Positions 5,222 through 47,910 of a stretch of 64,000 nt of DNA are shown here, piece after piece (positions within the stretch are counted from its first letter, which is position 1; the number at the start of each line of letters is the position of its first letter). A program made the translations under genes and the position numbers. The stretch comes from Octopus vulgaris. Lineage: Eukaryota. The stretch spans positions 65,720,001 through 65,784,000 of the forward strand of contig OX597818.1 in assembly GCA_951406725.2 (NCBI GenBank), written 5' to 3'. Under the pieces are notes generated by a model that was not told the DNA's origin, did not search any database, and saw only the letters and a program-made list of their open reading frames with translations.

Positions 5222-5664
5222 TTAATATACGATAAATTTTTTTTCGGGAAAAAAATTTTATCAATGGCCAGCATATCAAAAGATGCCTTTAAAGGTAAAA
5301 TTTATACATAATTTACAAGTTAAGTGCAGAAGAAAAATTCTAATCCCAGATATGCCGAAACAAAAAATTGTTGGTCGATAACCATTATAATTTATGCGTT
5401 TCGAAACAAACCGAAATAAATCTCTATTGGTCCAATTTCGGGGTTAATTCATAAGAAATTTTCCCCTCTTCAGCGGCAAATACGCGAGATATAAATGAAA
5501 TACTTACTCATACCCATGGAAAAAGCAAGCACTACGTCCTGAGCAGACTTAAGTACCCCAAATATACCCAAAATAGAAAAATATTTCGAGACGCATAAAT
5601 TATAATGGTTATCAACAATTTTTTGTTTCGGCATATTTGGCATTAGAATTTTTCTTGTAAATTA
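5222..5664. mobile_element. Foldback element in (TA)n with decayed hammerhead (Penelope pLTR-like)
   Basis: Inverted arms ~5309-5406 and 5584-5664. Minus strand reads CTGAAGA (5473-5467) ... CGAAACGCATA. Unique extension on the left side. Confidence 0.7.
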
Positions 5665-5679
5665 TATATATATATGTAT

Positions 5680-6140
5680 ATTATATTAAATTAGAGATAA
5701 AACCACTATTAGGCATATCAAACAGTGAAAATCATAAGCCAATACGTAGAAATAAAATTAATTAAAACATATAAAAAATATAAAATATAAATTTTAAAAT
5801 CCAATTGAAATATTTAAATTAGAGTTAAAGTTAAAAAAAATATTTAAATTAATAAATTAAACTTATAAATTTTATATATATATATATATATATATTATTA
5901 TTTTATTCATTTTATTTATTTGTTTTTTTTAATAAATTCTAAACTATCAAAAAGTATTAAAAGTTTAATATAAGATAATTTTATTTCTATGTATTGGCTT
6001 ATGTACTTTCACTGTTTGATTTAACTAATAGTGGTTTTATCTCTAATTTAATATAATATATATTTATACTATAAAATTAGATTTAATCCTAAATCTAATT
6101 GTTCCCTGTAAGTTTGGATTTACTCCCTAATTTTTTATTA
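5680..6140. mobile_element. Foldback element in (TA)n, same family as the 15.8-16.1 kb hammerhead element
   Basis: Inverted arms 5680-5760 and 5976-6057 plus a right-hand extension. The right arm matches 16009-16077. Confidence 0.75.
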
Positions 6141-6215
6141 TACATATGTATATATATATATATATTATGTGAAATAGAAAGATGAATAATCTTGTTGCAG
6201 ATTAATCAAAAGTTT

Positions 6216-6250
<35 letters not shown>

Positions 6251-6333
6251 CACACATACATACATACATACATATATACATACACACATACATACATATA
6301 TATATATATATATACATACATACTTACATACAT

Positions 6334-6390
<57 letters not shown>

Positions 6391-6391
6391 T

Positions 6392-6660
6392 ATGGTTACG
6401 ACGTCGAGGTTTTCAGTTCGTCCAATCAACAGAACCGTTTGCTCGTGAAATTAACGTCGTTCTCGGGGAGATTCAGCGTGACAGTGTGACAAAATTGGCC
6501 CTTTGAAATACAGAAAGAAATAGTGCACCCCACCTGCTGTAGTCTCGTGAAGCTTCGTGTTTACGGTTAGTAAACACTCACAACACCCGGTCTGGATATA
6601 GAAAACACAATCGTACGACCGCCTGTCCGCTACCCAAATCACTGAGTCATTGCCCCTCAC
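6392..6660 (-). mobile_element. tRNA-derived SINE, family C (decayed)
   Basis: Colinear similarity to 36037-36397 (ctcgtgaaattaacgt, ggccctttgaaatacag, aaacactcacaac). Confidence 0.75.
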
Positions 6661-6689
6661 GTATGTTGTTGTTTTTTGTATTTATATAT

Positions 6690-6965
6690 ATATATTGTTC
6701 TGTTATGCCTTCGAAACATGCCTGACTCCTCTAGCGACAGCTGATGACGGGGGTTTTGTCCTTGTGTAGCTCGTCCTGTATTTGTTTTTCGTTTTCTTGT
6801 TTTTCGTTTTCCGTTTTCTTGTTTTTTGTTTTTTGGTTTTTTCCGTTTCTACGTCTTATTGTGTTGTCCTGTACTCCCGTATAATTATTTATATATGCAT
6901 GTATATATACATGTAGATGTAGGTACGTACATATATGTTTGTATGTATGCATATATTTTTATTTA
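6690..6965 (+). mobile_element. TA-associated repeat, Penelope-end-like; inverted relative at 11650-11795
   Basis: About 110 bp match the reverse complement of 11650-11760. Contains cgaaacatg...ctgatga. Confidence 0.55.
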
Positions 6966-6970
6966 TCTCC

Positions 6971-7014
<44 letters not shown>

Positions 7015-7015
<1 letters not shown>

Positions 7016-7300
7016 TAAAGCCCTGTGAGTGGATTTCCTGCTCTCACACTGACATAAGACTGTCGTAAATGTGTGTAAATTTGTGTGTATGTGGGCGTGC
7101 ACGCGCGTGTTTTTGTCCTCCCACCATCTCCTGACAACCGATGCTTCTCTGTTTACGTCCATTTAAGACAGCGGCTCAGCAATAGTCTCCGATAAACATA
7201 GTACTAGGCTTACAATGAATTAATCGTCGGGTCATTGTGTTCGACTAAAAGTGGTGCTCCTTCATGGACCCACTCACATGACTGAAACAATAAGAAACTA
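7015..7300 (+). mobile_element. SINE family A, 5'-truncated and decayed
   Basis: tgtgagtggattt ... gacaaccgatgct ... gtactaggcttac ... tcgactaaaagtggtgctcc ... tgactgaaacaa match the family A copies. Confidence 0.8.
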
Positions 7301-7899
7301 TATCAGTTTTAATCCCAAGCAGCGCCGGTTATATCAACGAGTTGTTATTAAAACCAAATTCACAGGGCGGGAAAAAAAGCAAATGTTACTAATAAACAAT
7401 GAACCGATTTTCACATCCTTAAAGCGAGTTATGTCTTAAGGGAATCAACCAGCTGAAACGCAGGAAGCTTTTTAGACCAATACAAGCGTCGATAATATTC
7501 GAGAAATATATCCCGTCGCAAGAAAATTACCCGTTCAGAGACTGGACTAGAATTAGTGAAAACAAATTAAGTTTTGACTGAAAAGATCACTAAATGAATG
7601 AAGCCCCCAAGCATTCGGCGAACCAAAAGACTGGCACAATTATGTGTGCTTAGAACGACTGTTGTATTCAGGCAGTTAGCCAACCAAGGGTACTGGACAT
7701 GTAGACAAATACGTGTGGCGTCTTCATGTGTGTAGGCTATTGTAACGTGAATCTTAAAACAAATATATACAAAGCAATAAAGACACGAATTATAGCGCAA
7801 CTCTTACAGCAAGAACCAACGGATAATATTTCTCCTTCATACACCATGAGAGAACAGGTGAAATAATAATCTTCTTACTCTTTAAAATCTTCAACATAT

Positions 7900-8727
7900 C
7901 TACTCCCATACTCCCATACTCCCTTCCTTCAGGTGAAACTCTCGCGGCGTCCAACAACATCAGAGACTTGGGAGTAATTGTGGAAAACAACATAAGCTGG
8001 GCCACTCATATAAACACCAAAGTTGACATGGCCCGCAGAATGTGTTCCTGGATTCTCAGAACTTTCTAGTCGAGAGATATCCACACCATTATCCTTCTCT
8101 TCTCCACTTTTGCCCGACCCCACCTTGAATACTGTTGTCCACTGTGGTCTCCCCACACAATACAAGGTATCATAAAAGTTGAAGCACCTCAAAGGGTAAT
8201 CACAAAAAAGATAGATGGCATGACAGGCCTCGACTATTGGGGTCGACTAGAAAAGCTAAAACTCTATTCTCTCCAACGTCGTCGTGAGCGCTACATCATC
8301 TGCATGATGTGGAAAATATTCCATCAGCATTGCCCAAATGGTGTTGGCATCACCTTTAGGGTACATCCAAGGCTTGGGCCCCGTGCCATCCGACCAAAAC
8401 AAAAATCGCACTCTCATCTCATAACAACAATGCGGCACAATTATTTCACCTCAATTGGCCCCGCTCTCTTTAACATTACACCAAAACACATTAAAACAGA
8501 AATTGACCCTATAGGGTTCAAGAAGTCTTTGGACAGATTCCTTCAAGAAATTCCGGATAAACCCCCTACACCCGGATATGTCTCTGTAAACAATAACTCT
8601 CTACTTGAGTGGGCCATAGTGCCAAAATTCTGACTTGAAAGACTTCACCAGGTGGTGCTATTAAGTTAGACATGGCCTGGGCCAATAATGGCCGAAACCT
8701 ATCAAAGTATCAAAGTATCAAAGTATC
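7900..8727 (+). mobile_element. CR1/L2-group LINE, 5'-truncated 3' end (RT C-terminus, 3' UTR, tail)
   Basis: IRDLGVIV...RPHLEYCCPLWSP...RLEKLKLYSLQRRRER, with one in-frame stop near 8067. ORF ends at 8633. (TATCAAAG)3 tail at 8700-8727. Confidence 0.93.
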
Positions 8728-9155
8728 TAACTGTAAACATTGCATATGTCTTTCAAATCGTTTGAACTTTCAAATTCCTATCATGTATAGTTGACAGGAA
8801 ATTTATTAAACTTTGGATTTTTCATCACTTAATGTTTTTGCAAAAATTATTTAACACATTATTTAATACCTTAAATACATTTGGATGAATTCTGTTCGAC
8901 ACTTCATTTCTTGAACATGTTTCTATGGCTATAAAACATTCTCCACTGCATTCGGTTACGTGAAAAAAATCGCTATATTTTAACGAATTCAAATATATAG
9001 ATATAGAGAATTTTTAAGAGAATTTTTCCACTCCAACACAAATTACTAAACACTCATATATACATACACAAACACACACATATACTCATGTATACATCCA
9101 TCCATACATACATATATACATACAGAAAACAAATATATATATATATATGTGTGTG

Positions 9156-9605
9156 TGTTATTTAGAGATAGTAGTCCCCTTCATCACACCATATAAAATA
9201 TTTTTTAATTTAATACTTACTACCCATTTCTCAGCTACACGTGTTTCTCGGGGCTCTTTTACGGTTCTTTAAGAACGCAGTGCTTTAGGGGAAACTTTCT
9301 TAAAATATAACCCCAATCATCAGGCATCTACATAACTTTATCATAGTTCGATATTAAATACTATATTTTAATTTTAACAGATAAGTATGTGTAAATAGAT
9401 TCGCCAGACGTTACTGTTCAAGCCATAATTTAGTTCAAGTAAAATTAACAAAAATAAAAAATAAATAAGTAGGGAGTATTGAAATAAAATTATTTTATAT
9501 GGTGTGATGAAGGGGACTTCTATCTCTCAATAACATAGACATTTCTTCATTGAGAATAATTTGAACCCCTGCGATGCCGGAATTGTTATTCCGTAATAAA
9601 TAAAA
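9156..9605. mobile_element. Foldback element carrying a hammerhead
   Basis: Inverted arms ~9156-9223 and 9468-9535, a right extension, and (TA)/(TG) flanks. Confidence 0.75.
9234..9325 (-). ncRNA. Type I hammerhead ribozyme (weak stem I)
   Basis: Minus strand: gc-CTGATGA-ttgggg[long loop]ccccga-GAAA-cacgtg-TA-gc. Palindromic stem III ACACGTGT, GUA site, stem I only 2 bp. Confidence 0.7.
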
Positions 9606-9613
9606 TATATATA

Positions 9614-9651
<38 letters not shown>

Positions 9652-9654
<3 letters not shown>

Positions 9655-9862
9655 CACTCTTTTACTCTTTTACTTGTTTCACTCATTTCACTGCGGACAT
9701 ACTAGAGCACCGCCTTCAGTAGAGCAAATACACCCCAGAGTTTATTTTTTGTTAATCTATTACTTATTCTATCGGTCTCTTTTGCTGAACCGGTAAGACA
9801 CAGGGACGTAAACACACCAGCATCGGTTGTCAAGCGATGTTCGGGGGACAAAAAAAGACACA

Positions 9863-9906
<44 letters not shown>

Positions 9907-10069
9907 AAAGTTAAAAAAAATACACAAACTGGGACAAGAACGTGAAACATTTAGAAGACGACAAAAAACATGGACGGGACTTTCGAAGCTCTCAGTCATC
10001 AGTCAAGAACCAGATCATCTTCGCAATTCCGGCTGATTAATCTTGAGATTGCTCCGATCTGAGCAGCCA

Positions 10070-10128
<59 letters not shown>

Positions 10129-10165
10129 AAAGGCTTCTTCCAGTTTCCGTCTACCAAATCCACTC
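9652..10165 (-). mobile_element. SINE family A, interrupted in its central (TA)n by another repeat (~9905-10070)
   Basis: 3' half at 9652-9866; 5' part resumes at ~10131-10165 and is then truncated. Confidence 0.85.
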
Positions 10166-10166
10166 A

Positions 10167-11460
10167 GATGTCGTTGGTCATCCGTAGGCTATAGGACGTT
10201 GAAGTCACCCATGAGGAATATAGTAGTACGTTGATCCAATTGTGATAGTACGTCCTTTATCGCACTGAGGCTTTCCTCAAACATTCCATCATGATTTGTG
10301 GCATCAGGTGGACGATATTTTGTGCATATCACTATATCACGTTGCTTTAGATGTACTATGAGTGTGTCATACACCGAGATCGAGTTCGATAACAAGGTTA
10401 ACGTCGTGATACCTTCGCGGATGTACAATACAAACCAACTGTGAATTCTTTTTTCTTCTGTTCGTACGTAATTTAGTGTATATTGGTATGTGTAACTCTG
10501 AATCATTTATGCTTGCAGACAGATCTGTTTCTGTAAGTGAAATGCATATGGGAAGAATTCATAAACAAAAAAACTAAAGACGAAAACAGGTGGTGTAGAC
10601 ACAAACGGATGCATTAGTTTAACGCTCGGGTAGTGAAAAAGGCTTTAACGTTTGCTAGCTTGCTGGTTAGAGCTTGAACTATTTTAAGCTGAAGATTTTT
10701 ATTTACATAGATATTTTTAAGGTTTAGATTCAAGTTCTGATTTGTTATAAAGTTAATGTCGCCACTTCATTTTGCCTGCAAGGCCAATTATTGTGGCTGC
10801 TTGTCAAGCTGACTGGCTCTTCTTTTTCGCATGTTCTAATCTCATAGTTTTGAAGTGGTCCAGCGTTATGGTTGGATGATTTCTTTGTGAAGGGATATGT
10901 TTACTGACAGTTTTGGCCACTTGCTTTTGCCATGGCCTCGTTGTTGGTTTCCTCCATACTATGATTGTTTCTGTCACATGTTTTTACTATTTCTGCTTTT
11001 TCCTGACAGTCGTCCTTCATGGAGGTTAGTTGCATCATTAAAACATTTACTGGTCTCGTTCAGCTAAAAGTCTATATATTTTCCAGTCTATATTTGACGA
11101 TTAAACATGTACATTGGTTAAAACATGGTGTTTGAGGGCGTACAAAACGGTATTTGCACAGTAGTTTGAAGTTAGGTTTTCGAGTCCTTCAGTTAGTCCA
11201 AACATTCAACTTTTGATTTACGTCTACTGTGATTAGTCGTTTCTTATGAAGAAATTGAGATTTTTCATAATTGTCTGTTGTTATAAAGCATTTATTTGCT
11301 GTCTGTTTTTCTCAATAGACGTTATCTACCCCATTTCTTTTCCTAGTTGTAGATTCTAAATCTATTTGTTTCTCATCATCATTCTGTCCCCCAAATTCCA
11401 GCATGTTTGACTAATGTAATGCCCATTATACCCGCCGCATTTCGGAACACTATCGAATGC
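10167..11460 (-). pseudogene. LINE 5' portion: decayed ORF1-like region plus AP endonuclease
   Basis: APE motifs ISLTET (~10540), VLYIREGI, YRPP and IFLMGDFN (ORF 10189-10506). Cys-rich remnant upstream (~11100-11170). A separate repeat fragment sits at ~10550-10635. The 5' boundary is uncertain. Confidence 0.75.
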
Positions 11461-11609
11461 TAAATGTCATGTGGAAAGAGGTTTTATATATATTAATAAG
11501 TTTCTAACGAAAATTTAAAACTACAAAGTAAACCCTACTGTAATCTTTTCTGCGTGAGAATACTCTGTTTCTGTGTTAGTGTGTGTATAAGAATGTGCGT
11601 GTATGCATG

Positions 11610-11646
<37 letters not shown>

Positions 11647-11799
11647 TAATAAATAAAATATATGCATACATACAAACATATATGTACGTACCGACATCTA
11701 CATGTATATATACATGCATATATAAATATATATATACGTACAGGACATCACAAGAAGACGAAAAAATCAACAGAACGAAAACGGAGAAGACATTTTGTT

Positions 11800-11878
<79 letters not shown>

Positions 11879-13028: not shown

Positions 13029-13104
<76 letters not shown>

Positions 13105-13356
13105 GATTTGGTTTGGCAATTATTTACTTTCTACTTCAGAGATTTCGAGCTTATCGCCTACAAAGGACATAGCCCTACTACAGTTAAATTCCGCCGTTCC
13201 CTTTGTTGTAACATACTCGTAGGAATGTAGAGGTCTTCATGTCTCTCCGTGCATTTTGCCCAACATCTATTGTTAGGAAGTAACAACACAAAAATATCCG
13301 TTAGCATTCAGCAGAACTAAATTATCAACACCAAAAGATAGAGCCAATCACTTATA

Positions 13357-13588
13357 CACTTTACTCTCTTTTATTTGTTTCAGTCATGTGACTGTGGCCA
13401 TGCTGGAGCACCGCCTTTAGTCAAGCAAATCGACCCCAGGACTTATTCTATCGGTCTCTTTTGCCGAAACACTAAGTTACAGGGACGTAAACACACCAGC
13501 ATCGGTTGTCAAGTTATTTTGGAGGAAAAACACAGACACACAAACATATACACACACATACATACATACATGCATACACACACACACG

Positions 13589-13630
<42 letters not shown>

Positions 13631-13793
13631 CGACTGGGTTCTTTCAGTCTCCATCTACAAAATCCACTCACAAGGCTTTGGTTGGCCCGAAGCTATAGTA
13701 GAAAACACCTGTCCAAGTTGCCACGCAGTGGGACTGAACCCGGAACAATGTGGTTCGTAAGCAAGCTACTTACCACACAGCTACTCCTACGCC
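13357..13793 (-). mobile_element. tRNA-derived SINE family A, near full length
   Basis: Head with A box (tagctgtgtggt) and B box (ggttcagtccc), CORE-like cttggacaggtg, central CA/TA microsatellite and AAAGAGT-type tail. Confidence 0.93.
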
Positions 13794-14623
13794 TTATGTT
13801 TAAAATTTCTAGAAAACCTACAAAATGTCTGCCTTGACCATCTTTTATTACTGAGGGTAAAATTCATACTAATCCAGAGTAAATCTGCCATATCCAACGT
13901 ATCGAGATAGCATCTCCAATTGTCAATTCTTTCCGAAATTAATATCCAGCCTAGGTCCAGCGAACGTCTTTTGTGATTGTCCACACTTCCAAGGTAGAAA
14001 ATCCGTTGGAAAGCTTTTTGTTTTTACCGCTGATGACTTCCTCCATTTACATTCGTTCGATAACCACATTCGCCTTTCTTGCAACATGCTGTAAATAATG
14101 TTAACTTGTCATTACACGAACCTTAATGTATGCGTAGCGGAGGACGTATAGCCTTTCACAATGATACAAAATGCTAATGCTTTCGTTTCACTGATAACTG
14201 CAGAAAGCAAATCTCAATAAATCTACGCTCACAGTTTCATGTTATATATTATGCAGATATTGCAAATTTATCTTTTGACATTGACCCACCAGCCATTGAA
14301 TAAAATCTTCATTCACAATGCTGGCGGATTTGGCAGAAGAATCTCTCATCAGTGGAAGATATCTTTTAAACTTCTCGTTGAAGTGCAGAAATGGCAAAAT
14401 CGGTTTTCCCGAACCAGATTTAAATTTAACTTTCTGGAAAATTTTTTGAAAAGTTAGTTACCTTTCATTGAATGCTATACTTGACAAGTATATGATTTTA
14501 TCGACTCCCAAAGAAGTCGATAAAATCATGTGTCAATAAAGTTGACATAAGTGAGTTGAGGACAGAACGAACTAGACGAGATTTTGATGTTTTACAATCT
14601 GCCACATCTCCGCCTGAACGTCG

Positions 14624-15842: not shown

Positions 15843-16078
15843 AAGTTCATTGATTAAACCTCGCCAAGTTAAATATGTAAACCACCTGAAGAATGACTGT
15901 AACTCGAACATTTTAAGAATTGAACAGCCATGAAACGATCGTAGTGTTATATTAATTAACTTTTTTAATAATTATGATATATATTTAAATAATATAAATT
16001 AATTAATCTTATGTATTGGCTTAAGTTTTTCATTGTATGATTTGCCTAATAGTGGTTTATCTCTAATTTAATATAATA
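15843..16078 (+). mobile_element. Hammerhead-bearing pLTR-like element in (TA)n
   Basis: TA flanks on both sides; 3' part matches the arms of the 5680-6057 foldback. Confidence 0.7.
15879..15948 (+). ncRNA. Type I hammerhead ribozyme
   Basis: aaccac-CTGAAGA-atgactgt[loop]acagccat-GAAA-cgatcg-TA-gtgtt. Stem II pairs 7 of 8, palindromic stem III ACGATCGT, GUA site, stem I cac/gtg plus aa/tt. Confidence 0.8.
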
Positions 16079-19500: not shown

Positions 19501-20456
19501 ACATATATTTATATATGTATGTATGTATATACACATGTGTTGAGAATTAGAGAAAATTATAAACATAAAACAAGGGAATAAGTCAGCAGATAACATTATT
19601 CTGTTTTAATTGTCTTGGTAGTTGCATTTTATTATTTCTTTACAAAACACACCTTCGTATTTCTGTAGGTTGTTTGTAAAATATAAATGTAGATGTGTGA
19701 ACACAAATGGCAAGTGTTCACCCTCCCAGCGTCACCAATAGACGGCCACATGGAACTTATGTCAAATGGAACTCATTCCAGACTAAGGGGAGGGAAGAAA
19801 TTGAATTTCTGTACTCGCAGTTTTGAATTATAATTCTTGTGTTCCATAGCGTACAGAGCAAACGCGTAAATTATAAGTAAAAAAAATAATTGGAATAAGA
19901 GATTAACTGAAGAAAAATAACGGAATTGCTATTCCCCGTTTATTATGCATTCGTGAAATTCTGGTAAACTTAACAAGGAATTTGATGTACTGACTCATTG
20001 CACGATATGTTATGTTTTATAAAACAAAGAAATCTTCCTGTCACATTTGCAGTGATAAGCAAGAAAATTCCGTTTGGCAGTACCAACTTGTTCCGATGTT
20101 CCCAGGTGTGTAAAATTTGTGAGTTTTGTTTAAAATTTGTTTTAACCGTTTTGCTTTTAAACCAGCAATATCCATTCCAAATATGCTTTGTTTTATGTTC
20201 ATCGACCTGACCTGGCCACCTAAGCTACAATTTATTCTGCAAATATACAATCACATCGTCAACATTTAGAATCTACAAGTTAATGCATGACTATTTGAAA
20301 GCAATGTAAACAATAATCAGTATAACCAACATGGTTAACTAAATAATAATTACCTAATACACACTAACGTGTAGCTTGTGTATCTTGATCAGAGAGTTGT
20401 CTTGCCGAGTCTTCCTCATACTGGATATTATTCTCGTAACCTAGACAATATCTACA

Positions 20457-20680
20457 TACTCTCTCTTTACTCGTTTACTTGTTTCAGTCATTCGACTGCG
20501 GCAATGCTGGAGCACCGCCTTTAATCGAGCAACTCGACCCCGGGACTTATTCTTTTGTAAGCCCAGGACTTATTCTATCGGTCTCTTTTGCCGAACCGCT
20601 AAGTAACGGGGACATAAACACACCAGCATCGGTTGTCAAGCAATGCTAGGGGGACAAACACAGACACACAATCACACACG

Positions 20681-20751
<71 letters not shown>

Positions 20752-20894
20752 CCGTCTACCAAATCCACTCACAAGGCTTTGGTCGGCCCGGGGCTATAGT
20801 AGAAGACACTCGCCCAAGGTGTCACGCAGTGGGACTGAACCCAGAACCATGTGGCTGGTAAACAAGCTACTTACCACACAGCCACTCCTGCGCC
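20457..20894 (-). mobile_element. tRNA-derived SINE family A, near full length
   Basis: Highly similar to 62388-62802; head ggcgcaggagtggctgtgtggtaag; central (TA)n. Confidence 0.95.
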
Positions 20895-22916: not shown

Positions 22917-22963
<47 letters not shown>

Positions 22964-23103
22964 CAATTAAGATTCAAGTGAGTTCTGTTGAATTCACATG
23001 AATGCGGTACTTAACTTAGATGCACCAGAAACCTATATGGTGTTAACCATAAGATAATGCGGGGTGATTATAATAAGAAAAAAGCAACAAGAATGGATCA
23101 ATA

Positions 23104-23192
23104 TTTCGGTACAATTGTTTCGTACGAAGACAGCTTTATTAAGGCTGCAAATATTGCAGTAAATATAAGTGACCCGTACTCATCAGCCGAAA
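23104..23192 (-). ncRNA. Type I hammerhead ribozyme (left arm)
   Basis: Reverse complement of the motif at 25859-25947. Confidence 0.88.
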
Positions 23193-24193
23193 AAACATCT
23201 GAGTCTCCAAACATCTAAGGGGGTGATGTTACACTCCTGAAACATTGGTGATAGTTCTATAAAAATAAGAATTAGGTAAGAAATGGACTTCTGAAAGTTC
23301 TTTTAGTGTTGCACAGTCATATAACGGGTTTTAAAAAAGTATTTAAAAAAACTCTTAGTTTTCCAGAAAATGAAAATGACATTGAAAATGTAAATCCATC
23401 CATATTGAAGAAAGTTTGAATTCTGGAGATATGAGGAGAGGTATCATCTCACAGAATATGCATTTATCCATAATTAGTCCATAATAAAGTATGTTTCCTG
23501 GTGTGTGATGATATATTGGTTACGTTTCTGAGAATTCCTTCAAACTGCTATGTTAGAATTAAATTTGTTGAAGGAGGGTTAGTGAAGCGTGGAGACATTC
23601 CCTCACATAGGGTATATTAGAGTAACTAAGAGGGGAAGGGGATGTAAGTGTCCAACTATGTAGAGTAGTTTACTTCAGTGGAGACGAACTGACTAAACAG
23701 AATTTGTATGAATCAAAGAGCTTTGAGGAGGAAAGCTAATCTTGACCAAATATCATCGTTAATTGCTATGTAATGAGGATATGGGAAGGTAAAGAAGGGT
23801 CAAAGGTTGTCACTATAGGAAAAACATTAACAGATTTCAGTGCAAAACTAGAAAGGAGGTCATTTAATTTATTTCTTTATTTATTAATGTTACTACTAAT
23901 AATACGATGGCATATTTTAGGACTACATTAAGGGGTCAAAAGAAAGGATTGTGAGTTGTTTTTCATAATGAAAAAACGTTATATTATTTTTATGGGATTA
24001 GCAATATTTACTAGTAGTATATAAAAGAACTACGAAGTCTAATTAACTAATTAACTAATTTGCTATAAGTTGGATTACCTACATTAGATAAAAAATTAGA
24101 TAGAATTAATTTAAATTATCTATATAATCTATTAGAATGAAAATTTATTTGTAACTAATTTATTTCTTTATGTTTCAAACCTGGTAGATTTAG

Positions 24194-25548
24194 TTAGTTA
24201 GTTAGTTAATTTGGCTCAAAAGCAAATAGCAAGGCCATGTAGGGGGGCATGGAGTTAAGTACAGGGTGGTGTTCATGTAAAGAGTTGAGGCCACTTGAGG
24301 TCCAGGGAGGCTTTGAACAAAGCGGTCGTCGGCATCTTCACCATCTCATCTGGCAGCTTGTTCCACGGATCCGCAACCCGGACGGAGAAAGCTCCTCTCC
24401 TTCGATTGAGATGAAATCGTCGCAGGTAGAGCTTTTCGGAATGACCCCGCAGCCGACGCTCCGGAGCAGGAGTGAAGAACAGCTCTTTCGAGAGGTTACA
24501 CTTCCCGCTTATGATGTTGTGGGCGAGAATGAGATCACCACGGCGGCGGCGTTTTTCAAGAGAATAAAGGTCGAGCGTCCTCAGCCTTTCTTCGTAGGAC
24601 AAATATTTGAGACCATGAACCAGGCGGGTAGCCAGCCTCTGGACTCTTTCGAGGTGCTGTATGTCTTTTAGGAGATAAGGAGAAGAGGCTTGAATCCCAT
24701 ACTCCAATATGGGTCTCACCAGCGTGACATAGAGTGGCAGGAATACGGCTGCTGTGAGCACTCCGAATGACCGTCGAATCAAAAACAGAATTCCGCGCGC
24801 TTTGTTGGCAGCATGGACGCACTGGGCCGAAGGCGAAAAGGAGGAATCCACCAAGATACCCAGGTCCTTTACCTGATCGGTCCTCTCCAGCAGCAGACGA
24901 CCCGGCTCGAAATCAAGTTGAGTTGTAGGAGTAGAGCCGACAGGCAGATGACAGCACTTTGACACGTTCAGACACAGGTCCCAATCGTTAGACCACTTCC
25001 AAATTTGGTGGAGGCATCGACGAAGATCCTCTATACTACCGCGAGGAGCGACCAGTTTGATATCGTCGGCAAATAGAAGGGTGTGTTGCGTGAGGTCGTC
25101 GGGCAAGTCATTTATGAAGACTAAGAACAACAAGGGCCCAAGCACTGAACCTTGAGGCACGCCACTGCTCGCACTGGAGACGTCGGACCGCGAACCATTA
25201 ACTTGAACTTGGAAGGAGCGATCTGAGAGTAAGGCACCAACCCATCGTACAATATCAGGATGGAAACTATATGCTTGAAGCTTGACAAGTAGTAGGCGGT
25301 GGTTTACCGAGTCAAAAGCTTTGGCAAAGTCCAATGAAACGATGTCAACAGCATCACTATCATCGAGGATGCGCGTCACCAATTCTTCCATTACTAGTAA
25401 GTTGGTCAAGCATGATCTCTTCGGCACGAAGCCGTGTTGGGAATCAGTGATTGAGGCTGTGCTTAGGAGGTGGAGCATCATACTTTTCTTAAGGATGGTT
25501 TCGAACATCTTGCTGATTATTGATGTAAGGGAAACCGGTCGGTAGTTA
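24194..25548 (-). mobile_element. CR1/L2-group LINE, 5'-truncated, young
   Basis: RT frame, short 3' UTR, (CTAA)n tail at ~24190-24208, and candidate TSD agatttag at 24186-24193 and 25549-25556. Confidence 0.93.
24273..25547 (-). CDS. LINE reverse transcriptase (5'-truncated, uninterrupted frame)
   Basis: NYRPVSLTS, QHGF, LDFAKAFDSV, GVPQGSVLGPLLF, FADD, KDLG, RRRRGDLI. The first ~23 aa of the called ORF (to 25616) are flanking sequence. Confidence 0.95.
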   Translation of the reverse strand, partial: NYRPVSLTSIISKMFETILKKSMMLHLLSTASITDSQHGFVPKRSCLTNLLVMEELVTRILDDSDAVDIVSLDFAKAFDSVNHRLLLVKLQAYSFHPDIVRWVGALLSDRSFQVQVNGSRSDVSSASSGVPQGSVLGPLLFLVFINDLPDDLTQHTLLFADDIKLVAPRGSIEDLRRCLHQIWKWSNDWDLCLNVSKCCHLPVGSTPTTQLDFEPGRLLLERTDQVKDLGILVDSSFSPSAQCVHAANKARGILFLIRRSFGVLTAAVFLPLYVTLVRPILEYGIQASSPYLLKDIQHLERVQRLATRLVHGLKYLSYEERLRTLDLYSLEKRRRRGDLILAHNIISGKCNLSKELFFTPAPERRLRGHSEKLYLRRFHLNRRRGAFSVRVADPWNKLPDEMVKMPTTALFKASLDLKWPQLFT

Positions 25549-25858
25549 AGATTTAGAGAGAAAATAACCATAGCCCATGAGCTCGTAGCTATCTCATTAA
25601 ATATATAATGTTTCAAACTTTCTTCAATATGGATGTATTTACATTTTCAATGTCATTTTCATTTTCTGGAAAACTAAGAGGTTTTTTTAAATACTTTTTT
25701 AAAACCCGTTATATGACTGTGCAACACTAAAAGAACTTTCAGAAGTCCATTTCTTACCTAATTCTTATTTTTATAGAACTATCACCAATGTTTCAGGAGT
25801 GTAACATCACCCCCTTAGATGTTTGGAGAACTCAGATGTTTGGAGAACTCAGATGTTT

Positions 25859-25947
25859 TTTCGGCTGATGAGTACGGGTCACTTATATTTACTGCAATAT
25901 TTGCAGCCTTAATAAAGCTGTCTTCGTACGAAACAATTGTACCGAAA
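25859..25947 (+). ncRNA. Type I hammerhead ribozyme (right arm)
   Basis: tttcgg-CTGATGA-gtacg[~48 nt]cgtac-GAAA-caattg-TA-ccgaaa. Perfect 6-bp stem I, 5-7 bp stem II, palindromic stem III ACAATTGT; predicted cleavage after 25941. Confidence 0.9.
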
Positions 25948-27639
25948 TATTGATCCATTCTTGTTGTTTTTTTCTTATTACATATATATATATATACATA
26001 TGTAGGGGTGGGTGAATCTCTTCATGCATATTTACGGTCAAGTTAATCCTGGTGTATATCTTTACAGAATGCACACAAGTGCCACACAATATATTTTTAT
26101 TAGATTTGCGGCACATTCACACTTACTGTCATGTGTAAATTTATCAGTGTCTTATTTCTCGGACGAAAAAGATAAAATGGAATTGTTATCATAAAATATC
26201 AATTAGAATTTATTTCCACTTTATTGGAATCAATTAATCAGCCACTTCTAATTGTGTTCTTCAAGTAACATTTTTAGATTCATGAATACTGTAAAATTTA
26301 GATATTCTTTTATTTTGAAAAACAACGGAATCATGTTCGCCCCCTATAGCATCACTCGTACCTTGTCATACAACCTCACTAATACGATGCTGTCAGTGTT
26401 ATGGAGACATTGTACAGTAGGTTTACTTTCAGTTGTGATGGTCACATTGTAGAATGTTTACGTCTTGCACACATTTCTTTAGAGAATATCTTGGTCATGC
26501 GCATACTTTATTTGCACATCAAACTTGGGATATTATTACAAAGATGCTTCGTTATTCTAATGAAAAAGTCCTTGTTTCGTAAACAACGTATGTTTCTAAA
26601 ACTATTTCACAATTCATGTTATAAATTACACTCCTGAAATATTCCAGGAAAAATCATCTCCAACACAAAAATATTACACTCGAAATATTTTATCAATCTT
26701 TTGAATCAAAGATAAAAGTATAATAAAAATCAGTGGCAAATTGCGGGACATATACGGCACCAGGCAAATAAGCATTTATATATACGGAGACAAAGTTCAT
26801 AAGAGCGGAACACACTCAGAGATAAGGAGGCTATTTACGATTCTTGTATTAGCAAGTATTTTCATCTAGTATTTTAAGATCTGACTGAAGCAATACAATC
26901 GTCATTTACCAATGTGATAAGAGCAAACCGTTTTGTTATTACAAGGAAACACGATTATGTTACAAAAACTTATCTGTGATAAGAGAAAATCCTTGAAAGT
27001 GAAGAAAAAAAATACATGAATACATTAATTAACTCATTTACAGCTAATTCCCGCTGCTGGTGCAGAGATAGTGAATATATAATGTTCAACCCGGTCGGCT
27101 GTTTCACCGGCTTAAAGCCTCGAAAACATAACGAATTCGACAAAAATCAATATACAACCATCGGTTCGACAGTTTGATTATTATCATTTTGAGAATTATC
27201 AGACAGTTAGAAGTATTTTCACTATATATATATACTATTGATGTAGTAATATTTTTTTAATTTAGTGGTAATTATGCATGTTCCTGTTGTCTATACTCAA
27301 TCTAATAAAACTACCTCATATTTTAAGGTATTTCATCCAGTCATTTTATCCCGCTCAGGGAACCTGTGAGGTTCGTGGGGGTAGAGTTCTCCATATGGCT
27401 TCATAAGTGTCAGCCATCGGTAAATATTCCTGGTGAATACCTAGGAAACACAACCAATGTCTCCTTATAACACCCGCCTTAAAACACGTTGCAGACATAC
27501 TACTTGTGGTAGCGGCATTTGGAGGAGGAGCAGATAATACATTGTTTTGACCAAAGGCCATTACCTAAAGATGAACTATTCGACTTCAGTATTTATATTT
27601 TTTAAAGTTTAGTATTTTCCTTTCTGTACGACGATGCTA

Positions 27640-36809: not shown

Positions 36810-37069
36810 ATCACAGAATTATGCATGTTATCTCAACCAGCAGGGAATTATTTCCAATGAAACGGGTCTGAAAATAATTTTCTCACATTCGGCCTATATG
36901 AAACTAAACGACAAGTGTTGCAGCATCGGTTAAATGCCAAGTGTAATTCCTATGAACTGAGCTCCATTCCTGGTTTGGACTACTTTGCATTTTGTCTCTG
37001 CATGGTGGACAAAATAATCACAATTTCAGAAATCAGAATATCGAAATTTTTAATATTCGAAGAGATATC

Positions 37070-37306
37070 TTTATTCTTTTACTTGTTTCAGTGAGTTGAC
37101 TGCGGCCATGCTAGTCGGGCAAATCAACCCAAGGAGTATTCTTTGTAAGCCTAGTACTTATTCTATCGGTCTCTCTTGACTAACCGCTAAATTACGGCGA
37201 TGTAAACACACCGACATCGGTTGTCAAGCGATAGTGGAGTGACAAACACAGTCACATAACGTACAACACACACACAAACAGGCAGACACGAAAACACACA
37301 CACATA

Positions 37307-37351
<45 letters not shown>

Positions 37352-37462
37352 GACGGGCTTCTTTCAGTTTTCGTCTACTAAATCTACTCAAAAGGCATTG
37401 GTTGGCCCGAGGCCATAGTAGAAGACACTCGACCAAGGTGCCACCCGGAGCTGAACCCGGAG
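37070..37462 (-). mobile_element. SINE family A, head truncated
   Basis: Colinear with the other family A copies; central (TA)n. Confidence 0.9.
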
Positions 37463-37774
37463 CCTTACAAGAAGGAAGTTCTGTGTGCTTGTTTAGTTGT
37501 TGGAGATGTTGTTCTGACGTTGGGCGTAAGATTTTTCTATGGATCATTGTCTTCTGTTCGGGGTCAGAAATCACTCAAATTGCGTGTCTCCCTACACAAA
37601 ATGTGCATATACGATTAACGAATGTATCTTGCACGTAATACTAATAGGTAAAAAATGTTAACTGTAAGAATATATGTGGCTTGGATTTTATCATATACCA
37701 CTAAGAGGACATTTTTCACATAGACGTCAATATTGAGAGGAAATACTGGGTTCAACGTACACCTTTCTCAAATG

Positions 37775-40104: not shown

Positions 40105-40307
40105 TTACTCTTTTAGTCTTTTCCTTGTTTCAGTCATTTGACTGTGGCCATGCTGGAGCACCATCATTAGTCAAGCGAATCGACCCCAGGATTTTGTAAG
40201 CCTAGTACTTATTATATCGGTCTCTTTTGCCGAATAGCTAAGTTACGGGAATATAAACACACCAGCATCGGTTGTCAAGCAATGCTGAGGGGACGAACAC
40301 TGATTCG

Positions 40308-40372
<65 letters not shown>

Positions 40373-40534
40373 CGTTTATTCGACGGGCTTCTTTCAGTTT
40401 CTGTCTACTAAATCCACTCACAAGGCTTTGGTCGGCCCGAGGCTATAGTAGACGACACTTGCCCAATGTGCCACGCAGTAGGACAGAATCCGCAACCATG
40501 TGGTTCATTATCAAGCTAATTACCACGCAGCCAC
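40105..40534 (-). mobile_element. SINE family A
   Basis: Colinear with 62388-62802; central (CA)n(TA)n. Confidence 0.92.
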
Positions 40535-41754: not shown

Positions 41755-42184
41755 ATTATTGAGTGAGAGACTAGTGCATTCCATCAGAGAGACACGGCAG
41801 TAAATATTCGAAGCTCAAAATACCCATCATGACTACCTGACCAAATACATGCATCACCACCATGGTAATTATACATCAGGATAAACAGATAATAATCTTG
41901 CAGGAGGGGGGCTACTTAGGATTTTCATCAAGTTGAGTAGCACATTCTACTCAAAACGTGCCTGAATAAGATTTGTTTACCTCATGTTTCTGAGGTAAAT
42001 TATTCAAGTCTCAAACAATTCCTCTCAACACATGGCTATGATTATCCCGCACGACTTTTGCTCAGGAACAGAGATGATCATATCGTCAACCATTAACTGA
42101 CGTGCTCTACTGGTTGCGATGAAACAAGTGACAATCATGTCTGTGATACAGAGCAGAATATTTGCTGTAGCTCATGTTTAATAC

Positions 42185-42248
<64 letters not shown>

Positions 42249-42800
42249 GAGTGAGAGAGCAGTTCATGCCACCAAAGTGACACTGGGGTAAAATATACGA
42301 AGCCCAGTATACTCATCAAGACTATCTGTCTGTTAAAGGGATACTAAGCACATGCATCACAGCCATATGTGCGCGATATGGTGATCTCATATCAAGATAA
42401 ACAGCGCATGACCTTGCAGGTGGGGCCCAGTTAGAATTTCTTTCTGGTCTAGTAGCCCATCCCGCTCAACAGGTCCTTGAATAATGGTTGTTTAAGGATG
42501 TTGAACGAACTACCCATGTTTTCAAAGGTGAATAATCAAAATCTCCAAGAATTCCTTTCAACACAAGGCTATGATGCTCACCTACTACTTCTGCTCATGA
42601 TCAGAGATGCACATATCGTCAGCAACTAAGGGACATGGTCAACAGGTTATGGTCAAACAACTGACAAGCAAATCTCTGGTATTGAGCAGAATATTTGCTA
42701 TAGCCCATCTTTTATACCAAGACAAGACAATGTACATGATAACACTTCCAATCTGTTAAGATCAGAAGCCACGAGAGCAACTGCTTTGTACTGCATCAGG
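41755..42800 (-). mobile_element. Two tandem copies of an unclassified (TAA)n-associated repeat (family D)
   Basis: 41755-42185 and 42245-42800 are colinear (gagtgagaga, cacatgcatcac, cttgcagg, ctcaacacatggctatgat, gagcagaatatttgct) and separated by (TTA)n. Related pieces at ~43115-43150 and 60165-60540. Confidence 0.75.
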
Positions 42801-45282
42801 ACAGTTCTTGTTGTTGTTGTTGTTGTTGTTGTTAATATCATTATTATTATCATCAGCATCATCATCATTATTATTATTATTATTATTGATGTTGTTGTTA
42901 TTCCTTCGTAAAATAGTGTACGTAAAAATACACCATTTACTATAGTCATCTGTCCTGTCACAACAATGGACATGAGACAGATAACACTTTTCTGAAGATG
43001 TGCTCTGTGCCCAATATGGCTGCTCTTTGCAAGACATTAGTCTTGCATAGGATTTCCAGTTGCCTTAAGAAATCTTGAACTTTCAATCGGATTAAGCCCA
43101 ACGCTCAAATCGTAGCACTTCCAATCAGTTAATATCAGGAGCCAAGAGAACCACTTCCTGATACCGCGTCACCAATATGTTACTTTCGGAATCAGAGATT
43201 CCTTATGCATCGAAGATCATTCTTACAACTGTTGCTGTTCCCAACAGAACATATTTCTCGACATATTAAAACTTGTAGAATTTCCTTTCCGTCCATTTTT
43301 AATTGGTATCTACCCACACAAATTAAATGGATTCTGCCAATATTGAGGTACCATTAAAATTCATTGTGAAACGCATTCTTACTTGAAACAAAAACTGAGA
43401 CATAATAAACTTGAATCTCATCAGAAACTGATTTCTAACTTCAGTGCCTTTATGTTTCTATATTCTGGATAGGGAGAGTCTGTAGCGTTTCGTTACATTT
43501 TCCTTATAACAACCTCTGTTACTCCTATGACACATTTGTATTATTTGAATCACAACGAGTGTTCTATCTATTGCCAATCTTTTTAAAATGACAACTGGCT
43601 CAGCGCAAGCGCTTCACTAAAATTTATGGCGCCAGAACTAAATCGTGGGACATGTAACTAACTTTTGTTCATAAAGATTATCTCGAAAGACATAAGGAAA
43701 TATTGGAGGAGGATCCATATTAGAGGTGTAATATGTTAGAGACATGTTTAGAGACATATCCAAAGTAACAGGATTATTGAAAATTGGGTAAGGTTTTGAG
43801 TGTTAACACCTAGTTTTCAAGATAATAGATTCTCATCCTTGCTTTAATATTTCAATTACCTATTAGTACTGGTAACAAAGATACACTGAAGATTTTGTAA
43901 CAAAATGGATACATTAGACAATGATAGAAAGAGCTTTACTCTACTTTTAATGTAAGCAATTTCCAACCACAGTTCCATATCTCGAAATGCATAGGAAGTA
44001 AATTACCGATCGGTAGATATAAATTTGAAATGCAACGCTGCAACTACGATGCAACTTGTCATAGAACGGAGATGAGAGGACCTTAAATTATTACTCACAC
44101 ATTCCTGTGAGAGGCCTTGATTATTCTAACGAAATCCGATAAGATACTGAAATCCAATTAACTAATTATTCATTGGCATGATAAATATTTAACTCAAATA
44201 ATTATTCGCCGTTATAGAGGATAATTAATTATCACGATAATGTCTAATTAAAATGATCAAGTTGGAGTTGTAGATGATCTATATATATAATACACATCAA
44301 ATTACAGGCTTCCCCATTTGTAGAATTATAAGATTTGTTTAAACGTAAGCAATTTCTTGCAGATCCTCTTCTGTTAAAAGCATTCCATATTCTTTGTTCA
44401 AGAAGACCAAACTGGGCAATTTTCACTACATTCCTCCAAATATTTTATAATCGGATGTAATTTTAAATGAAAAAAGAAAATAATTACATAATTATAATAC
44501 ACTGCTTCGGTACTATGATTGTTAACGCGACTATTTTGCTCCTCTTGGAGAAATTGGTATCTCCATCACTATAATCCCTTCCTCTACACACCATTGGAAA
44601 CCCTATTTCCAGACCTCTATTGCAAGCACCGCTGCATTTGCCGATAATGCCACATGTTAAAAAACGGGGTGGGTGAGGCCAGCGATTCGACACCATCAAT
44701 ATTCCCATCAATAATATATTTGAAACCGGAAGCATTAATTCACGTGCTACAAATCAGCAGATAGCAGATAATAATTCTTCGTTAATCACAATTTGAGTGT
44801 ATGTCTTGATGCACCCCGATTTCATAAAATTAAATCAATTAAATAAAGAAACCCCTTCTATATACATATAAAACTGTTTTGTAGAAATAACGATTACTCA
44901 TGTTTCGCCGATCACATTATTTTAATTGTAAATCGAACACATTTAACTGAGTGTTTGTGCATAAATACAAAATAATTACAATGGATATATATTATATACG
45001 TAACTCAAACGTGTCAAATATGTTTATAATCTTTATATTTACAACTAATAAATTATTATACTATATAGGTAGAATATTTTGCCCTTCCTAAAGTAAAACG
45101 GAAAATCCCCTCTCTGTGAAACTAATATAAACAACTTTCGATTATGACTTACCTACTTAACATTATTCCGACATCATATATATTCAGATATCTGATTTTA
45201 TATTACAGGACTAAATTAATAGTGTCGGAAAGAATCACAAAATCATCGACATCCAACAAAACGGTGGTAGTTGTTTTCTGTT

Positions 45283-45516
45283 GAAGGCGACGAGCTGGCA
45301 GAAACGTTAGCACGCCGGGCGAAATGCGTAGTCGTATTTCGTCTGCCGTTACGTTCTGAGTTCAAATTCTGCCGAGGTTGACTTTACCTTTCATCCTTTC
45401 GGGATCGATAAATTAAGTACCAGTTACGCACCGGGGACGATATAATCGACTTAATCCGTTTGTCTGTCCTTGTTTGTCCTCTCTGCGTTTAGCCCCTTGT
45501 GGGTAGTAAAGAAATA
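45283..45516 (+). mobile_element. SINE family B monomer with 17-bp TSD
   Basis: ggtagttgttttctgtt at 45266-45282 and 45517-45533. Confidence 0.95.
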
Positions 45517-46831
45517 GGTAGTTGTTTTCTGTTTTACTTTCTAAAAAACTACATTATCTCTCATACCAGCCTAGAAGCAAACTACAATTCTTTTCATTTA
45601 GAAAGTGGGAAAAAAGCTGTTTAACTTTCCAGATTTATTTTCAAACTAGCAGCATACTCAGAAAATTAATTTTACTGTTGCCAAAAAGGGTTAATGAGGA
45701 AGTGATTTTTTGTAGAATTTGCTAAAATCTGATTTGCTTGTATTTTGACATGTGAGAACCATAAGCCGATTTATGAAGACATTCTAAACTGTTTGCACAA
45801 CACGGATCGAAATTTACAGTGAATGCAAACTTGATATCTAACATATTCTCACTTCAATATTATTTCATTAATATAGTATAAAAGTTTTTTTAAAAAATGA
45901 TATCACCTAGTTTCTAGATCGCTAATCGGGTATATTAACGAGATTACTAGCGGCTTTATACGAAAACCTATTATATGTATTTCCCGAACGCAGACGTAAA
46001 GCTTATGGCAAGAGAAGTAATCTAATATTTGAAGTTTCGTCCTACTCAGTAAATCACCCGAGATTCTAGAGAGAATATCAGGAAATATTAACAAGGAATT
46101 ACCTTAATTGTACTGCAGAAGCATGGCCAAAAACACTAGCTCACACCGAGAATACAATACTTGAAAATGCAAAAGTACAGATGCCTTCTTTTGGACTGCT
46201 GGAAATAACATGTATATATTTTTTTCACCTCCAAAAATTTCAGCCAGAGGCTAAGGCTATGCTGGAGTACCACCTTTCAGTGTGATTGGGTGTTTTTTTG
46301 TATTGCTTTTCGTAAATGAGCTTGACCGAACAGCTCTTTAGTTTGCCGCCTGCCGCGATCAAGGTGCATCGAAGTGAGATAGAAATTTTTCCCGAGGTTT
46401 TTACGATAAATCCATAACTACATATCACAAATCGCTGAGACTGTTGGGAAGAATATTGAATAGTTTTCGACACATGAAACCCGAACTATTACAGCATTAG
46501 GTCTTTATTCATGTTGCAGCAGATGGCATCCATGATATTATGGACGGCCGTACCCTCTAGTGGTCGGTATAACTTTCAATTCTACATTTGGTAGCTAAAT
46601 ATACCTGAACCTTCCATATACAAGAATGCTTATCTCTCACACCTTTTCTCTAAAGAGGAGAGCGTCATTTCATTTCGCCTCCCGCAGTGGCTCATATGAT
46701 TGACAAGGTCACAATCTTTTAGGTCTTGGCTCTGGATTGCTTCCTGCATTGTTAAATAAATCACTCACTGGTTACGAGTCCAGATGAAAAAAAATTTACG
46801 CACCCACACGCGCGCACACATACATACGCAC

Positions 46832-46863
<32 letters not shown>

Positions 46864-47043
46864 CTCCTGTTTAACACACAGCGGGTGCATTGTCGGATCG
46901 TCGGCGAATAAACTGGCAACACTAGCAGGCTTGCTTGGTGAGAAAGGTGACCGTTGCTCACCCTGCGATATCAAAATTGGGAATAGTCAAAGAAGAGATA
47001 ATTCATGCGCAGTCAGCAGCCATCCCAGAACTATGTGTAAATA

Positions 47044-47096
<53 letters not shown>

Positions 47097-47099
<3 letters not shown>

Positions 47100-47444
47100 T
47101 GAGAAAGTCGGTGTGTGAAAGCACGTGGTTGAATATATAGAAAATAGTGAAAAGTGAAAAAACTATAGAATGCTTGTTTTAAAAGGTTAAAAAATATATT
47201 TGAGTCATTAGGTCAGAAGAATGTTATAAAAGTTTTTCATACAGTGACATACTTTTTGAAGAAATTACCGGTTTCGTGATAGATATTTTGAGAAATTTGA
47301 AAAGTTAACACGAAACCGGTAATTTCTTCAAAAACTATGTCACTGTATGAAAAAATTTTATAACATTCTTCTGACATAATGACTGAAATATATTTTTTAA
47401 CCTTTTAAAACAAGCCTTCTGTAGTTTTTCACTTTTTACTATTT

Positions 47445-47447
<3 letters not shown>
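47097..47447. mobile_element. Foldback element (140-bp arms, 30-nt spacer) with hammerhead 3' half
   Basis: Arms 47139-47278 and 47309-47447; GAAACCGGTA at 47312-47321; left-only extension; (TA)n and (TC)n flanks. Confidence 0.85.
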
Positions 47448-47512
<65 letters not shown>

Positions 47513-47515
<3 letters not shown>

Positions 47516-47910
47516 TAACAATTGAGGGTAAAATCTTTAAAAGAAATTATCAGTAGTCAGCGTGAAAAAACCTCGTAAGAGAAAAAATCCGTAAATTCTT
47601 CCTCTTTGAAAATATTCATTTATATTATATTGAGGGTACTACTATTCGTAGATACCAACACGCTAAGAGGGACCAATGCCGGTTAAAACTACTAAAAATA
47701 AACAAAATTTTACCGAATGCAAAACTTCAAAACACATCATTTTAAAAAAGAATTTAGTTACATATCACGTGTGATTTCACATTTAATGCAGAATATGCAT
47801 TTGATGTTCATCAGTGCAACAAACTCAAGAAATATAAGAGAAAACATAATATTACAAGCTCGATAGCCAACCGTAGAATTCGTCGTAGCATGTACGAATG
47901 TTTATCTTTA
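47513..47910 (-). mobile_element. Hammerhead-bearing pLTR-like element in (TA)n
   Basis: About 400-bp complex island between long TA tracts, containing the motif at 47757-47820. Confidence 0.7.
47757..47820 (-). ncRNA. Type I hammerhead ribozyme
   Basis: Minus strand: gttgca-CTGATGA-acat[caaatgcatattctgcattaa]atgt-GAAA-tcacacgtga-TA-tgtaac. 6-bp stem I with one G-U, extended stem II, stem III tca/tga, AUA site. Confidence 0.88.

Follow-up and report, generated by a model that had tools for sequence, protein, structure and literature searches.

A 64,000-nucleotide stretch of the Octopus vulgaris genome (GenBank assembly GCA_951406725.2, 2.80 Gb in 227 contigs; contig OX597818.1, positions 65,720,001 to 65,784,000, or 65.72-65.78 Mb), referred to here as the window, carries five complete hammerhead ribozyme cores from four repeat families, A to D, and two damaged ones from families E and F. 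It is very probable that A, B, and C represent truncated ends of Hydra-type Penelope-like elements (PLEs) and that D, like E, is a protein-free unit that their enzymes probably copy in trans; the GIY-YIG endonuclease (EN) would nick (TA)n, and the reverse transcriptase (RT) would prime there. The linkage of these families to open reading frames (ORFs), their TA junctions, two fixed 3' ends, inverted truncated partners, the invariant tandem junctions of D, and the exact loss of an intron in B were all observed directly.

Hammerhead ribozymes in the window

The five complete CTGANGA cores start at 9323 (minus strand), 15886 (plus), 23186 (minus), 25865 (plus), and 47814 (minus). In each, the core leads into a base-paired stem II, then GAA, stem III, a cleavage triplet (GUA or AUA), and stem I, and all five form type I hammerheads, with the CUGANGA, GAA, and UH core, stems I to III, and an opening at stem I. 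An earlier reading of the window from its sequence only had assigned five complete cores to four unrelated elements, and both a descriptor search and BLAST agree with it: the window has 5 motifs by the descriptor and 100 dinucleotide shuffles of it average 0.02 to 0.05 (maximum, 1), so that the motif frequency is not that of shuffled background, and families A to E are mutually unrelated by BLAST, sharing only matches of at most 28 nt, all of AT-rich or TA sequence. Stem III is a different self-complementary sequence in each family, as had been described, namely, ACACGTGT in A, ACGATCGT in B, ACAATTGT in both copies of C, and ATCACACGTGAT in D. The near-palindromic form reported for D holds for the window copy, which differs by one base from the perfect palindrome of the family, ATCACATGTGAT. 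Pairing was said to be kept throughout, and this is so for stems II and III of all five cores but stem I of the family A window copy is weak, its proximal part having just 2 bp; in most members of A, the stem is formed by GGC/GCW together with a distal helix. The two damaged copies are those of E (core at 5473, minus strand), in which the 3' arm of stem I is deleted, and F (core at 48450, minus strand), which has a deletion within stem-loop II. Loop II reaches about 60 nt in these families, and the core is intact in nearly all of the copies listed. In an Rfam scan (E value of ≤1), no hammerhead family occurs among the 150 matches listed out of 195, nearly all of which are to microRNA models and represent noise driven by microsatellites.

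Linkage of families A, B, C, and F to Penelope-like coding sequence

Relatives were sought in the same genome by searches in which the best 40 of 160 to 2,800 candidates were scored; the first-look candidates, which are not copy numbers, were 735 for A, 1,277 for B, 1,919 for C, 1,827 for D, 2,837 for E, and 33 for F. Upstream of a 1.15-kb 3' untranslated region (UTR), relatives of C encode a GIY-YIG domain, a linker rich in asparagine, and RT motifs. The linker and GIY-YIG domain are present in three of the five long relatives (loci L106, L107, and L109), with the RT motifs upstream also in L109, and the endonuclease and linker motifs are CNCRIRSKC (C-N-C-x5-C), CQLC, and CIH; the window copy retains the UTR alone. 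Family B seemed to be ORF-less in the first 25 loci, and upstream walking reached the RT and EN region in L361. L361 and the randomly drawn L158 align with 92.5% identity over 3.3 kb, from the RT through the EN into the B 3' UTR, and carry the motifs CTCRDKTK (its last C deleted in L361 and unseen there in L158), CYLC, and CRH. In L312 and L325, family A extends upstream for about 1 kb until it meets the end of an endonuclease of this type, with the C-terminal motifs CxxC-E-N-CxH in the form of CLLC or CPLC and CKH. Hydra-type ORF matches stop about 115 nt 5' of the family F core in L147.

The Hydra clade has the RT followed by a C-terminal GIY-YIG domain, a CxCX5C linker, and CxxC and CxH motifs around E and N; its members are generally <3 kb and have DKT and RWK motifs (PMC8557442). 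The order of RT and then C-terminal GIY-YIG is seen in C (L109) and B (L361 and L158), and a CCHH motif is absent from A, B, and C, as judged by eye. On these motifs, A, B, and C are assigned to the 5'-truncated 3' ends of ORF-bearing Hydra-clade PLEs. The sequence-only reading had taken all four elements to be non-autonomous, which stands for D, and for E, which it did not list, but not for A, B, and C, which join Hydra-type ORFs. It had also named plain truncated ends of already catalogued Penelope families as a case that would lower novelty, and A, B, and C come close to that case.

Two other PLE groups were considered. Naiad elements have the endonuclease at the N terminus and no canonical hammerhead; an identity with Naiad was rejected because of the domain order, the EN here being C-terminal, and canonical hammerhead cores are present. 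An identity with Neptune was dropped for A to C because the CxCX5C linker is present.

A near-full-length Hydra-type element of another family, running from its 5' end to the hammerhead with a few frame breaks and a low-complexity linker, lies at L366/L153 (G000:C11:76.71-76.72 Mb); L153 has SDKT and RWL motifs.

Families D and E are short ORF-less units

The D unit has 497 nt and the E unit has 462 nt, and neither contains an ORF. The unit junction is crossed seamlessly in 30 of 45 distinct D insertions and 9 of 20 distinct E insertions, and two whole same-strand ribozymes are present in 9 of the 45 D and 2 of the 20 E insertions. Most of the D cases listed have the same junction, and D insertions stop at unit position ~394 or ~490 to 497, in the same orientation and on either side of the junction. 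Copies of D and E that reach unit position 1 are preceded by the unit's own 3' end or by an inverted piece. For D, no ORF-bearing or common foreign upstream sequence occurs in 55 loci, and a search using only the sequence 3' of the ribozyme also found no foreign upstream sequence. Delimited by its cleavage sites, the D unit has a folding z score of -3.96, and stem I joins its ends. The D copies are 97 to 98% identical and hence young. These features suggest that D and E are likely non-autonomous, retrozyme-like units copied in trans by PLE enzymes, for which a circular RNA template has roughly even chances.

The 5' ends of D do not pile up at the cleavage site (unit position 244/245). Four of about 18 in-unit 5' truncations fall at unit positions 254 to 260, just 3' of stem I, a small number near the query edge, which could possibly mark stalling of the reverse transcriptase at the folded ribozyme.

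TA targeting and insertion ends

TA runs are common everywhere in this genome (1,766 per Mb in the window and 1,398 per Mb in a random sample), and the TA adjacency of the elements therefore needed a control, which it passed. After deduplication, 211 of 246 free 3' ends (86%) have (TA)4 or longer within 22 nt outside, against 5.3% for a random background; by family, the TA-abutting ends are 23 of 32 for A, 69 of 82 for B, 29 of 33 for C, 66 of 71 for D, and 24 of 28 for E. Under a looser test, three other abundant repeats have TA-adjoining ends in 1 to 29% of cases. In the window, TA-type runs flank both ends of all four elements, A to D, as had been noted, and the proposal of microsatellite-targeting retroelements is borne out by the TA test together with the linkage to RT and EN. 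Each family has two fixed 3' ends, 65 to 105 nt apart, and inverted 5'-truncated partner copies are common, with the tail on one end. On this structure, the foldbacks are interpreted as the usual inverted 5'-truncated copies of PLEs; the asymmetric foldbacks described for the window are found for A and C but not for B and D.

Exact loss of an intron in family B

Long B copies contain a GT...TTTTAG segment of 891 to 913 nt (about 895 nt) that ends 13 to 14 nt 5' of the core, with GT...AG boundaries in all eight measured. In the short copies, including that of the window, the flanks are joined exactly and both flanking A residues are kept, which disfavors a deletion via the nearby AGATA microhomology. 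Among the B cores examined, 45 are of the short form, 21 are long, and 12 are unclassified, duplicates and query bias included. Of 38 distinct intron-less copies, 37 start at most 40 nt from the junction and none starts beyond 65 nt. Among 12 intron-retaining copies, five extend at least 393 nt upstream and six start within 30 nt. We infer a transcription start 20 to 40 nt 5' of the donor and retrotransposition of spliced sense RNA. The exact loss of the intron argues for a spliced sense-strand template, at least for short transcripts; alternatively, one or two ancient splicing events may have been followed by amplification. No spliced copy of family A was found among 13 cores in 16 stretches, taken from 42 matches. 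Intron retention in PLEs has been discussed in terms of an antisense or an unspliced sense template, a choice left undecided in that source (PMC3846280). No report of intron-less PLE retrocopies was found in the literature covered, which mostly excludes subscription journals.

Abundance

In a genome sample of 100 random 10-kb stretches (1 Mb), there are 8 strict motifs; five shuffles give 0 to 2 apiece, and the reversed sequence gives none. All eight have a self-complementary stem III, a feature that the score partly rewards. Extrapolation gives about 22,000 strict motifs genome-wide (95% interval, 10,000 to 44,000). The very high genomic count anticipated from the window is thus correct in kind, but the window, with 5 motifs per 64 kb against 8 per Mb, is about tenfold denser than the sample, and four insertions in 64 kb have a P value of ~0.002 at the sample rate. 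A CCGA(A/U)GA core variant adds 9 raw matches, some duplicated or spurious, in 5 of the 100 loci; because of it, the true count is above ~22,000, yet it is far below what the density of the window implies. Hydra-type EN matches occur in 9 of the 100 random loci.

Four loci (L173, L201, L206, and L225) belong to a Hydra-type family in which CCGA(A/U)GA replaces CUGANGA and stem III is ACTCAGAGT.

Proposed mechanism and alternative explanations

In the mechanism that we propose, the GIY-YIG nuclease would nick (TA)n, and the nicked target would prime at AU-rich RNA sites 3' of the ribozyme; early stops would cause 5' truncation, and a second priming would give the inverted arm of a foldback. The self-complementary stem III would allow strand exchange between two ribozymes, which would then act as a cleaving dimer; this has been proposed for the type I hammerheads of animals. 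Unit-length RNA of D and E would arise when consecutive ribozymes cut, and copying around a circularized form would generate the seamless partial tandems, with both units mobilized in trans. In B, transcripts starting about 20 to 40 nt 5' of the intron would sometimes be spliced and retrotransposed as short copies.

Several observations weigh against this interpretation. The Hydra-clade assignment rests on protein motifs and on reference proteins compared by eye. The GIY-YIG domain of C matches Pfam with an E value of 2.5e-4 and a score just under the curated cut-off, C carries DRT where the Hydra clade has DKT, in a stretch that stops short of the RWK region, and only the last ~50 codons of the endonuclease were reached in A. 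Lengths exceed the <3 kb typical of the clade, the incomplete C copy in L109 having about 3.8 kb and the B 3' UTR alone about 2.3 kb. No sequence link joins D or E to any particular autonomous family, and rare long copies of either may escape searches in which only the best 40 candidates are scored. The E unit folds weakly (z score of -1.87), and seven isolated motifs tested fold no better than shuffles (z scores of +1.2 to -1.9). For 10 copies of F, 87.9% of stem cells are paired, against 23 to 43% in slid controls, and the covariation within the family (2 double-change pairs) is not above shuffles, 149 of 500 of which are equally high. Rare substitutions sit mostly in a single repeat of a tandem (42 against 8 shared in D and 49 against 12 shared in E), and a circle is therefore not singled out.

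This last observation bears on a different origin of the D and E tandems, in which master loci arranged in tandem would give linear multimeric transcripts that are copied uncleaved, or the templates would be switched along a terminally redundant RNA by jumping, the ribozyme being weak or a passenger. The longest same-strand runs of D and E have just ~2.1 units, low in vitro activity has been reported for metazoan PLE hammerheads (PMC4209133), partial tandems are also common in PLEs without hammerheads (PMC8557442), and rare variants are shared by 16 to 20% in tandem repeats, modestly above the 8 to 9% in inverted repeats. Linear multimers account for D and E nearly as well as a circle does. 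The ribozyme core is nevertheless intact in nearly all listed copies, the junctions hardly vary, insertions end in one orientation at two sites flanking the junction, and folding of the D unit brings its cleavage ends together, so that this origin is considered a serious competitor with somewhat less than an equal chance of being correct. It is unlikely that D and E are instead the ends of autonomous elements whose long copies lie outside the top matches; B also seemed ORF-less until its ORF was joined after two further searches, and the searches for D and E scored the best 40 candidates only, but copies at unit position 1 are preceded by their own 3' end or an inverted piece, also in the search with the sequence 3' of the ribozyme.

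It is highly improbable that the four elements constitute a single, separate class of ribozyme retroelements that are non-autonomous. The window copies themselves lack a PLE ORF, D and E lack one anywhere sampled, and the short B copies act as a noncoding subfamily, but A, B, C, and F each run into Hydra-type coding sequence at independent loci, which refutes a single class for A, B, and C. Another possibility is that AT-rich repeats match the motif by chance and that the TA adjacency reflects the microsatellite load of the genome. It would agree with the poor folding of isolated motifs and with the 21 to 28% of random positions that have the start of a TA run within 250 nt; this explanation is refuted, with a negligible probability left to it, by the excess of motifs over shuffles in both the window (5 against 0.02 to 0.05) and the sample (8 against 0 to 2 per Mb) and by the TA junctions (86% against 5%).

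Comparison with known systems

The shared architecture is already published for the Hydra clade: Hydra-1_Obim of Octopus bimaculoides prefers (TA)n, and Hydra hammerheads are tabulated with a family-specific self-complementary stem III (Craig et al. 2021, PMC8557442). Families A to C resemble this clade in their domain order, linker, CxxC and CxH motifs, and sense type I hammerhead near the 3' end, and they share with it the (TA)n targets, the partial tandems, the inverted copies with 5' truncation, and a tail at one of the ends; that paper describes partial tandems, inverted copies, and such a tail for PLEs, and PMC4209133 describes helix III self-complementarity and dimer cleavage. They differ from the published clade in the number of families, many here against one listed for Octopus, in 3' UTRs of 1.1 to 2.3 kb, N-rich linkers, loop II of up to ~60 nt, and DRT in C, and their tails have 65 to 105 nt against the 30 to 40 nt described for PLEs. 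Only PMC8557442 was found as a relevant paper on cephalopod hammerheads. The main text of a 2026 O. vulgaris repeat paper contains neither "ribozyme" nor "Hydra," and its supplements or repeat library may list these families.

D and E resemble metazoan (non-LTR, that is, lacking long terminal repeats [LTRs]) retrozymes in being ORF-less, low in GC, and tandem, each unit carrying a single type I hammerhead (Cervera and de la Pena 2020, PMC7229834; bioRxiv 10.64898/2026.07.22.740005). In those sources, PLEs are proposed as the mobilizers and origin of retrozymes, from co-occurrence and phylogeny, and reverse transcription is modeled as proceeding around circular RNA. Unlike retrozymes, D and E have units of 462 to 497 nt against a range of 150 to 450 nt and arrays of only about two units; they are dispersed and TA-targeted, with PLE-style inversions, and known here from DNA alone, and "microsatellite" is unmentioned in PMC7229834. 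As non-autonomous PLE derivatives with head-to-tail insertions, D and E recall MRC1 and other non-autonomous Chlamys PLEs of Chlamydomonas, most of which, unlike D and E, are devoid of canonical hammerheads and favor (CA)n or (C)n (PMC8557442). Family B is similar to Penelope of Drosophila virilis, in which an intron lies soon after the transcription start (46 nt there, in the pseudo-LTR) and has its end on the 5' side of helix I of the hammerhead (Schostak et al. 2008, PMC2377424; Cervera and de la Pena 2014, PMC4209133). Copies of Penelope retain their 75-nt intron, in contrast to the ~895-nt intron of B, which is lost exactly in many copies.

Overall, these would be new families within a known clade, together with two derivatives that resemble retrozymes. 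The core observation expands a described clade and is mainly of use for repeat annotation, at a scale of 10,000 to 44,000 estimated strict hammerheads and Hydra-type EN remnants in about 9% of 10-kb windows. We tentatively suggest, with the doubts slightly outweighing the case, that D and E are circular-RNA retrozymes with the full Hydra-PLE integration signature and that the spliced, promoter-proximal retrocopies of B reveal sense-strand copying. If true, D and E would tie animal retrozymes mechanistically to PLE enzymes, and the B retrocopies would show a PLE RT copying the sense strand, contrary to the antisense-template account of intron retention. D and E directly bear the PLE integration footprint and are young, and the link between retrozymes and PLEs is thereby open to simple circle and cleavage assays.

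Layout of the copies in the window

5222-5585, minus strand: family E copy of the 462-nt ORF-less unit, core 5473-5467
5581-5656, plus strand: family E inverted 5'-truncated arm
9150-9462, minus strand: family A hammerhead arm, a Hydra-type PLE 3' end without a tail, ending at a TA/TG run; core 9323-9317, stem III 9244-9237
9463-9604, plus strand: family A inverted 5'-truncated arm with a tail, ending at (TA)n at 9605
15844-16070, plus strand: family B short copy, intron-less, with the exon junction 13 nt 5' of the core; core 15886-15892, stem III 15935-15942; TA on both sides
22962-25609, minus strand: family C main copy, a Hydra-type PLE 3' UTR with a ~105-nt tail running to (TA)n, split by a long interspersed nuclear element (LINE); core 23186-23180
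24194-25552, minus strand: LINE reverse transcriptase fragment inserted in family C, 457-aa frame, Pfam RVT_1 E value of 4.7e-32
25612-25980, plus strand: family C inverted 5'-truncated copy without a tail, ending at TA; core 25865-25871
47513-47907, minus strand: family D copy, 5'-truncated, unit positions 88-490, core 47814-47808; TA on both sides
48398-48582 (approximate bounds), minus strand: family F old, diverged 3' end, core 48450-48444, stem III ACCCAGGGT

The C relatives lack the LINE, and in them the position corresponding to 24193 joins 25553 directly. The inverted C arm alone has a 17-nt tandem duplication at 25817-25858, just 5' of the hammerhead. A foldback at 5677-6150 derives from the 3' end and tail of family B and is cut short before reaching the ribozyme. 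Adjoining the D copy, a foldback at 47098-47444 retains in both arms no more of a hammerhead-like motif than the 3' half (GAA, ACCGGT, A); relatives of this foldback in L364, L365, and L106 adjoin Neptune-type ORFs, so labeled from motifs (CxxC linker), without the CUGANGA core. A weak remnant of a Hydra-type endonuclease C terminus lies at 63335-63550 (tblastn E value of 2.5e-4).

The 3' part of an ORF at 8070-8633 (plus strand), which we take to be LINE-like from its motifs, is closed by short TATCAAAG repeats at 8700-8727. A two-part repeat resembling a short interspersed nuclear element, with a microsatellite between its halves, occurs at 9649-9862, 13353-13794, 20453-20894, 37070-37464, 40107-40531, 62395-62805, and other positions and has 152 to 162 matches per Mb in the random sample. 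Microsatellites account for 120 tandem-repeat rows in the window.

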